Assembly: GCA_021513715.1 (NCBI GenBank)
Contig: CP084167.1
Span: forward strand, 1,568,001 to 1,632,000
Direction of reading: 5' to 3'
From: Candidatus Heimdallarchaeum endolithica
GTDB lineage: Archaea > Asgardarchaeota > Heimdallarchaeia > Heimdallarchaeales > Heimdallarchaeaceae
DNA length: 64,000 nucleotides
Shown here: in pieces, positions 32,761 to 33,381 of the stretch
Layout: each line of letters begins with the position of its first letter
Position numbering within the stretch: position 1 is the first letter of the stretch
The notes under the pieces: model-generated
Told to the model about the DNA's origin: nothing
Databases searched by the model: none
The model's input: the letters and a program-made list of their open reading frames with translations, nothing else
Position numbers and translations under genes: made by a program

Positions 32761-33381
32761 ATCATCATAAGATCCAAAAATTACTTCTAATTTGTTGTCA
32801 TTATTTAAATCACCAACAACTGGAGGATAAACAGTCCAAAACGTTGCATTAAACTCCCAGAGGATCGAGTTTGAAAGACTATTCAACGCGTAAATGGTGT
32901 TGAAATTTGAAACGGCAATTATTTCCTTTATACCATCGTTATTCACATCAGCTATAGCTGGAGGATTGCTAAAGATATGACCATAAATTGTATTTTCTAT
33001 AATCTCGTTTGAAGACCATAAAAAATCGCCATTAGACGCGTTATAAATTCTAATATGGCCATAATCTGTACTGGTCAAAACAATCTCATACTTTCCATCT
33101 CCTTCTATATCTGTCAGAATGTAATAATACCTGAAATGTGACACATAATATTTTTTCCACAGAATTGAACCATTATTTACATTTAATGCACATAATCCTT
33201 CGTTTATCCCATTTTCACTATAGTTAATTATGAGTTCTGGAATACCATCGCTATTACTATCCAATATGGATGGTGGATACACTTGTGTTTTTGTTTTGAA
33301 AGTCCAAAGAATAGAACCTTCTAGCGGATCTAATGCGAGCACAATTGTTTCTCTTTTTCTTCCATCTTTGCTAGTTGTCAT
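32761..33381 (-). other. Inverted 621-bp internal segment of the propeller gene
   Basis: Bounded by AT at 32761-32762 and 33380-33381. Exactly 207 codons, in frame with both flanks when flipped. Confidence 0.85.

Follow-up and report, generated by a model that had tools for sequence, protein, structure and literature searches.

A three-site rearrangement at an AT-core mini-element in a surface-protein gene of Candidatus Heimdallarchaeum endolithica

A propeller gene in pieces and its intact ortholog

The window, i.e. the whole stretch of 64,000 nucleotides that was analysed, corresponds to G000:C1:1568001-1632000, where G000 is a closed genome of 3.33 Mb with about 31% GC. It contains a surface-protein gene whose two outer parts are separated by a reversed segment of the same gene and by a short mini-element. 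The features of the locus are given below; sites 1 to 3 are the ancestral breakpoints and L029 is the locus of the sister genome G001 that carries the intact ortholog.

32404..32763, plus strand: 5′ part of the gene, with the start codon, the N-terminal transmembrane segment and the start of blade 1
32764..32765, no strand: core AT of junction J1, joining the left side of site 1 (CATG, L029 1500-1503) to the reversed left side of site 2 (GATG, L029 2116-2119)
32766..33379, minus strand: inverted block of 614 bp, with blades 1-4 and the start of blade 5
33380..33381, no strand: core AT of junction J2, joining the reversed right side of site 1 to the left end of the element
33382..33758, plus strand: body of the mini-element, 377 bp, ORF-less, termini G...C
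33759..33760, no strand: core AT of junction J3, joining the right end of the element to the right side of site 3 (CATG, L029 2272-2275)
33761..34615, plus strand: 3′ part of the gene, with the rest of blade 6, blade 7, TSP3 repeats, C-terminal transmembrane helix and zinc ribbon

The ortholog was found by a protein search of 40 relatives, as a 97%-identical match within an uninterrupted 662-aa ORF of G001, a closed sister genome of the same genus (3.08 Mb). The protein has a 7-bladed FG-GAP propeller, TSP3 repeats, a transmembrane helix and a zinc ribbon. By blastn, the window and the ortholog align in three pieces, the middle one of which is reversed. Specifically, window 31264-32765 corresponds to L029 1-1502 on the plus strand, window 32763-33383 to L029 2119-1499 in reverse, with 97.9% identity, and window 33753-35102 to L029 2268-3618, again on the plus strand. 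Within these alignments the 5′ part of the gene matches L029 1141-1500 collinearly with 7 mismatches in 360 nt, and the 3′ part matches L029 2275-3129, likewise collinearly, with 9 mismatches in 855 nt. Pfam matches are FG-GAP_3 and FG-GAP in the translation of the inverted block, TSP3_bac and FG-GAP_3 in the 3′ part. Read by itself on the minus strand, from 33381 down to about 32761, the FG-GAP stretch is without a signal peptide and ends in antisense junk. In other words, the inversion relative to the ancestral order is real, and the flipped gene segment proposed by an earlier, sequence-only reading of the window is borne out by the reversed middle piece.

The three ancestral breakpoints, CATG, GATG and CATG, all belong to the target type of the element family described below, and sites 1 and 3 are the only CATGs within L029 1400-2400, the genome average being 1.9 CATG per kb. 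Each of J1, J2 and J3 keeps exactly one AT, with no base added or missing. At J1 the two blastn alignments overlap at window 32763-32765, and rebuilding the gene at the core AT gives TSIM(T)TSK, the same as in the ortholog; at the position of J3 the ortholog reads ...TTC-AT-GCAATAG. The alignment with an intact ortholog was the check named beforehand. It upholds the inversion and leaves the right breakpoint where it had been placed, at the AT of the left end of the element (33380-81), whereas the left breakpoint moves by 3 nt: it had been assigned to 32761-62, and the crossover AT lies at 32764-65, because comparison with the ortholog shows the 5′ part extending through the ATC codon. As three ATs spaced 3 nt apart occur at 32761-32768, any choice among them gives an in-frame flip. 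The block, which had been read as 621 bp, measures 614 bp, or 618 bp with both cores. The reading that no second copy of the element is present proved correct, as the far end of the flipped block has none and J1 joins host DNA to host DNA.

When the 614 bp between the cores are un-inverted and the element is removed together with one AT, the reconstructed gene of G000 has 611 codons versus the 662 aa of the ortholog, with 591 identities, one gap of 52 aa (GFVY...NVIH) and one stop. The gap represents 156 deleted bp, about one blade, and counting the blades by their LW motifs gives seven in the G001 ortholog and six in the reconstructed gene. The join YDD/AID had been suspected to be merely 2-3 residues short, an underestimate of the real loss. 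Loss of the blade by unequal crossing-over between repeats was ruled out, as the gap of 52 aa does not agree with the repeat spacing of about 47 aa; this route is also contradicted by the ends of the gap, which coincide with J1 and with the element junction. The stop is a TGA at 32692-32694, in the 5′ part of the gene, where the ortholog has TGG, and is a nonsense mutation. Reading the TGA by genetic code 4 was rejected because of this TGG and because the other ORFs read normally.

Given the insertion, the loss of 52 aa and the TGA, the gene is broken either way and is therefore not a regulatory switch. The proposal that inversion could phase-vary the protein is thus not supported: reversal cannot restore a gene with an insertion, a missing blade and a nonsense codon. 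The features of a programmed invertible switch are likewise absent, the flanking repeats being only palindromes of 2-4 bp and no recombinase lying near the inverted block. As far as the surface-protein gene is concerned, this is pseudogenisation of an ordinary kind. Metagenome contigs were scanned for population variants at the protein level and by DNA pattern, with no matches.

The AT-core element family and other flipped blocks

The mini-element is gene-less and 381 bp long including the AT at each side. G000 holds 16 full copies of 86-100% identity, plus fragments, and the left-end consensus N-AT-GAGTTG... is found in the 16 copies. Its terminal inverted repeats are imperfect (23 nt, 18/23 positions match) with a TTACGTAA box in each, and an Rfam search of the mini-element gave no match. 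The same end design is shared by about 12 elements of 1.85 kb in G000, whose sole gene encodes a TnpB of 486 aa (Cas12f1-like TNB in Pfam), and the last ~22 nt of the mini-element are almost identical to the right end of these TnpB-only IS copies. One TnpB-only IS of 1,854 bp lies in the window at 709-2563, inserted in an ORF; its end design is CATG, about 10 nt and TTTTTTACGTAA, and its right end contains the 22 nt in common with the mini-element. The window also contains, on the minus strand at 5110-5153, a 45-nt remnant that is 84% identical to the left end of the mini-element and lies inside or at the start of the ORF 5112-5825, about 135 bp from a tRNA-Thr gene (4902-4976).

The flanks of every element were mapped to G001, and six mini-element copies and most IS copies turned out to be clean insertions. 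The empty sites of the sister genome hold a single AT and every copy has AT at both junctions; that is, the family duplicates only AT, with termini G...C (n=6 clean cases for the mini-element, more for the TnpB IS). The AT core proposed by the sequence-only reading is confirmed by these empty sites, together with the one AT kept at all three junctions of the locus. The target is N-AT-N with a preference for C-AT-G, and the flanks seen are C-AT-G, T-AT-G, A-AT-G, T-AT-C, G-AT-T and C-AT-A. Copies 99.5-100% identical to each other are a sign of family activity. In the comparison across 40 relatives, TTACGTAA-type ends number 35 in G000, 24 in G001 and 0-3 elsewhere, which equals the control level. 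In G000, an inverted pair of mini-elements (C1:1123642-1124020 and 1129107-1129485) brackets about 5 kb largely absent from G001; the arrangement may represent a composite transposon, or else a larger rearrangement caught at an intermediate stage.

The mapping, which covered bases 1-2,800,000 of G001 (2.8 Mb), shows that four other family members of G000 adjoin a flipped block. In addition, a whole-genome blastn comparison of G000 with the same part of G001 revealed inversions with no adjacent element in both genomes.

G000, copy 1840192-1840569: 734 bp flipped at the right end (region 1839399-1840569), CATG at both ends, nothing lost
G000, copy 2922001-2922373: 326 bp flipped at the right end (region 2922001-2922701), joined at CATG, about 1.35 kb lost
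G000, TnpB IS 1138725-1140569: 197 bp flipped at the right end (region 1138527-1140569), GATG/CATC site, 5-nt scar at the far junction
G000, copy 2295243-2295621: 157 nt flipped at the left end, between two CATG cores
G000, C1:487054-487691: element-free inversion of 638 bp, base-perfect CATG-CATG
G001, C1:2488890-2489420: element-free inversion of 531 bp, base-perfect CATG-CATG

Both the left and the right end of the elements are used in these flips, as is expected because the ends are symmetric, and the distal site is CATG in most of the element-flank inversions and GATG in the others; one CATG of the 734-bp block requires a single C/T difference from G001. The notion that a palindromic core permits joining in either orientation is supported by the target preference of the family at the distal sites and by the recurrence of single-copy flank inversions at four other elements. 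Several of the events disrupt genes. The 734-bp block breaks a 440-aa ORF and the event at copy 2922001-2922373 sits in a 960-aa ORF, both intact in G001, and un-inverting the 157 nt at copy 2295243-2295621 restores a class-II amidotransferase ORF of 258 aa. The element-free inversion of G000 splits into three pieces a 746-aa ORF which is intact in G001 (C1:416254-418491), and that of G001 breaks a 590-aa ORF intact in G000 (C1:2734502-2736271). As each genome has such an inversion, the flipping activity has acted in both lineages. The element-free inversions are most simply read as footprints left after later precise excision; a host CATG-directed activity would also account for them.

G000 has 6,320 CATG sites (1.90 per kb), and AT occurs 102 times per kb. 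An element end is a partner in 5/7 of the base-resolved small inversions, and element junctions make up an estimated 1% or so of the CATG sites; by our own arithmetic, the involvement of element ends is therefore far beyond chance. The anatomy of the locus, its ancestral state, the site specificity and the recurrence of the events are matters of direct observation.

With 2.86 CATG per kb expected from base composition, the tetranucleotide is mildly avoided in G000, perhaps because the flipping activity is selected against or because a restriction system is at work. A larger block of 2.1 kb is also inverted between the genomes (G000:C1:862176-864269, G001:C1:761758-763985). Its edge in G001 adjoins a right-end remnant of the TnpB IS of about 40 nt, and its other edge, in G000, adjoins an IS of 1 kb that encodes a transposase of 328 aa and has inverted repeats of its own, in which CATG occurs.

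Candidate enzymes and related mobile elements

No transposase or recombinase linked to any family copy was found in either genome, and no tnpA of any kind. A search for IS630-type DDE transposases (PF13358) gave no match in G000 and was positive in control genomes; the PF01359 search gave no match in G000 and none in the controls either. One tyrosine recombinase was found. The Y1 TnpA profile (PF01797) has a single match in G000, truncated at the 5′ end by a mini-element copy, and none in G001, which yet carries about 24 family ends. The loci considered are the following.

G000:C1:923990-925875 (locus L027): Y1 tnpA with its start missing; a diverged mini-element copy (L016) adjoins it 30 bp upstream, and the adjacent tnpB is frameshifted
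G000:C1:316731-317450 and 405351-406097: candidate serine recombinases SR1 and SR2 (PF00239), 240-249 aa, N-terminal resolvase domain

The Y1 TnpA beside copy L016 was ruled out as the mobiliser, being truncated and having no counterpart in G001. The serine recombinase near a partial copy at 314437 was also considered as an IS607-type TnpA and ruled out, as its catalytic domain is N-terminal in the ordinary way and no tnpB separates it from the copy. SR1 and SR2 are paralogs (46% identical), each single-copy and both unlinked to elements. They are 95-96% identical between G000 and G001 and about 75% across the archaeal family, i.e. unusually well conserved for mobile-element genes. They occur in 22/24 genomes of that family, with or without element ends; accordingly, across the 40 relatives the recombinases are nearly universal in the family, whereas the ends are abundant only in the genus. 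SR1 and SR2 are possible candidates for the enzyme, and the only ones.

The comparison with known systems is instructive in several respects. The piggyBac elements move by cut-and-paste at palindromic TTAA, with a 4-bp duplication and an element-encoded DDE transposase. The present family is similar in that its target is palindromic and duplicated on either side of the element, and in that excision would be expected to leave no scar, and differs in that the duplication is of AT alone and no such gene was found in the genomes. The IS630/Tc1-mariner elements, with a DDE transposase and a 2-bp duplication, target TA, in contrast to AT here. IS1, Tn3 and Mu give rise to adjacent inversions and deletions by intramolecular replicative transposition, the inversions being marked at the far end by another copy, inverted, and by a duplicated target. 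As in those cases, the rearrangement described here runs from an exact element end to a nearby target-type site, and both inversion and deletion are among the outcomes; unlike them, it leaves one copy, one AT per junction and no inverted copy at the far end. In the serine recombinases of the Hin, Gin and Tn3 type, the central 2 bp set polarity, and recombination takes place at defined sites with accessory sequences, the recombinase gene lying next to them. A self-complementary core would likewise remove orientation control in such a system and lead to inversion or deletion, but the partners here are an element end and almost any nearby C-AT-G.

Two groups of TnpB-bearing elements are of particular relevance. 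The ORF-less carriers of omega-RNA and the PATE-like derivatives of IS200/IS605 are, like the mini-element, short gene-less derivatives of TnpB-bearing elements. Those derivatives have subterminal hairpins and insert 3′ of a fixed tetranucleotide, whereas the present family has inverted-repeat ends, duplicates AT and has a Y1 TnpA that is absent or truncated; no fixed tetra- or pentanucleotide target is found, as the flanks vary on both sides of the AT and the ends are symmetric (G...C). The IS607 family (IS607, IS1535, ISC1904) combines a serine TnpA with TnpB and is characterised by a 2-bp GG overlap, no longer duplication and a loose choice of target (PMC6188088, PMC4058570). The likeness consists in the association with TnpB, the same dinucleotide at both junctions and in the target, and the lack of further duplication. 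IS607, however, has its own tnpA with an N-terminal DNA-binding domain, an asymmetric GG and no terminal inverted repeats, whereas in the family described here the ends are inverted over 23 nt and contain TTACGTAA boxes, the AT is palindromic and neither closed genome has such a tnpA. Specifically, an element-encoded serine TnpA with an N-terminal HTH is absent, the mini-element being ORF-less and the IS copies having tnpB only, and both PF00239 proteins of G000 have N-terminal catalytic domains, which is not the IS607 architecture. No reports of flank inversions were found for IS607. Chen et al. pointed out that subunit rotation in the IS607 paired-end complex would invert, not transpose.

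Possible origin of the three-site footprint

We propose that a 381-bp non-autonomous member of the AT-core inverted-repeat family, whose other members carry tnpB only, would have inserted at the CATG in blade 6, mobilised by an enzyme encoded elsewhere and acting in trans. The enzyme would then have exchanged the AT at one element end with that of the CATG 772 bp upstream and that of the GATG 156 bp upstream. It is just as possible that the element, oriented the other way round, first entered the upstream CATG and that the exchange was carried out by its other end. Since AT is its own reverse complement, the exchange is blind to orientation and either inversion or deletion can result. The net outcome would be 614 bp flipped, 156 bp lost and one AT per junction, in a gene which is thereby destroyed and later gains a nonsense codon. 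On the whole, we regard the rearrangement as probably an accident, a by-product of the trans-acting AT-core recombinase or transposase of the family and not a regulatory switch.

We infer that an enzyme, and not host repair, made all the junctions, by a conservative exchange across a 2-bp overlap in the manner of a serine recombinase, through steps whose order and number may be conceived in more than one way. The serine-type chemistry is thus put forward as a proposal. A conservative 2-bp-overlap exchange is the chemistry proposed for the IS607-family serine transposases (PMC4058570, PMC6188088), and it explains directly both the exact junctions and the disregard of orientation. At all the loci the junction between element end and target is exact, with one AT, and the far partner is less than 1 kb away and shows the target preference of the family. 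Besides an insertion, the locus would require two exchanges, whichever came first, unless a single event involved all three sites. The three scenarios that could be drawn up all reproduce the sequence: the element lands at site 3 and its left end acts, or it lands at site 1 the other way round and its right end acts, and inversion and deletion then follow, one before the other or the reverse. They are indistinguishable because conservative exchanges leave no scar.

Some observations speak against this account. No copy has a transposase or recombinase linked to it, and the two resolvase-domain proteins differ from IS607 in architecture and are conserved with or without the ends. The reciprocal junction is sometimes exact and sometimes lossy: 156 bp are missing at the present locus, copy 2922001 has lost about 1.35 kb and IS 1138725 shows a scar, so that a purely conservative recombinase would need extra events. 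J1 has a 3-nt CAT microhomology, compatible with end joining, and the two precise CATG-CATG inversions have no adjacent element. As regards the interpretation offered by the sequence-only reading, the AT core, the single copy and the idea of a mechanistic footprint hold, whereas strict conservation does not and phase variation is unsupported: because 156 bp (52 aa) are lost at the third site, the event cannot be described as simple conservative recombination.

An explanation that makes direct use of the lossy junctions is that the enzyme joins only the freed element end to a CATG, in inverted orientation, and that host microhomology-mediated end joining of the resected leftover ends makes J1 and the 156-bp loss. 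This would fit an element-end/target junction that is precise in 5/5 cases beside a reciprocal junction that varies (two loci have no loss, this one lacks 156 bp, copy 2922001 lacks ~1.35 kb and IS 1138725 has a scar of 5 nt), as well as the CAT at J1. Nevertheless, the partner at J1 is once more NATG (GATG) with a single AT kept, both junctions are perfect at two loci and in the two element-free inversions, and the loss here is one-sided and starts exactly at the core; this mixed origin is considered unlikely. Still less probable is that two copies in opposite orientation occupied both CATGs, that homologous recombination flipped the block between them and that one copy was excised with 156 bp. 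The family is active, as its nearly identical copies indicate, and an inverted pair 5 kb apart does exist (1123642/1129107), but four events would be needed within 0.8 kb here, two insertions separated by 157-734 bp would be required at five loci, although the genome of 3.3 Mb has about 30 elements, and the predicted intermediate, i.e. inverted copies around a short block, is seen at no locus.

The base-precise CATG-CATG inversions without an element, found in both genomes, and the under-representation of CATG (1.90 versus 2.86 per kb expected) would suit a host activity that cuts and religates CATG, for example a restriction enzyme plus a ligase, with the element as a bystander whose ends create CATG. 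Yet an element end takes part in 5/7 of the resolved inversions, the sites used include GATG/CATC, and the element-free cases could equally be footprints of precise excision. Moreover, elements insert at sites other than CATG, e.g. T-AT-C, and the activity is therefore AT-based; a CATG-specific host activity appears very unlikely. As for an artefact of assembly or library preparation, MDA makes inverted chimeras, and a chimeric Nanopore, PCR or MDA read could enter a consensus. If these are the published Heimdallarchaeum assemblies, PCR-barcoded Nanopore reads are the source of G000 and MDA material is that of G001, but the assemblies were polished with Illumina reads (PMC8813620). In addition, J1 is a unique-to-unique junction, the nonsense mutation fits a real inactivation, and the breakpoints fall on the target motif of the family at several independent loci in both genomes, so an artefact is extremely improbable.

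Returning to the preferred account of an AT-core enzyme acting in trans, the rearrangement clearly exemplifies a side reaction that recurs in an unusual, TnpB-associated family of transposons. New in this analysis are the ortholog-based reconstruction of three sites, the further flipped loci and the two element-free inversions. Tentatively, and with less confidence than in the by-product reading itself, it may be suggested that the genus possesses an undescribed system, in which a trans-acting recombinase of low specificity, possibly one of the two conserved small serine recombinases, recognises a palindromic AT, with CATG preferred, and moves elements with inverted repeats whose sole cargo is either TnpB or the guide RNA of TnpB. 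Such a system would, on the side, flip or delete sub-kilobase pieces of the chromosome, and the locus described here would be among its clearest three-site footprints.

TnpB is the ancestor of Cas12 and of the eukaryotic Fanzor, and the locus bears on how TnpB-only elements move. Thanks to the intact ortholog available for comparison, it offers a base-resolved record of the mobilising enzyme. The signature of this enzyme, that is, exchange at AT with CATG preferred, by either element end, blind to orientation and local (<1 kb), provides a biochemical guide for the screening of candidates. Finally, in this archaeal lineage, which stands close to the eukaryotes, such elements scramble genes in ways that ordinary annotation takes for unrelated gene fragments.
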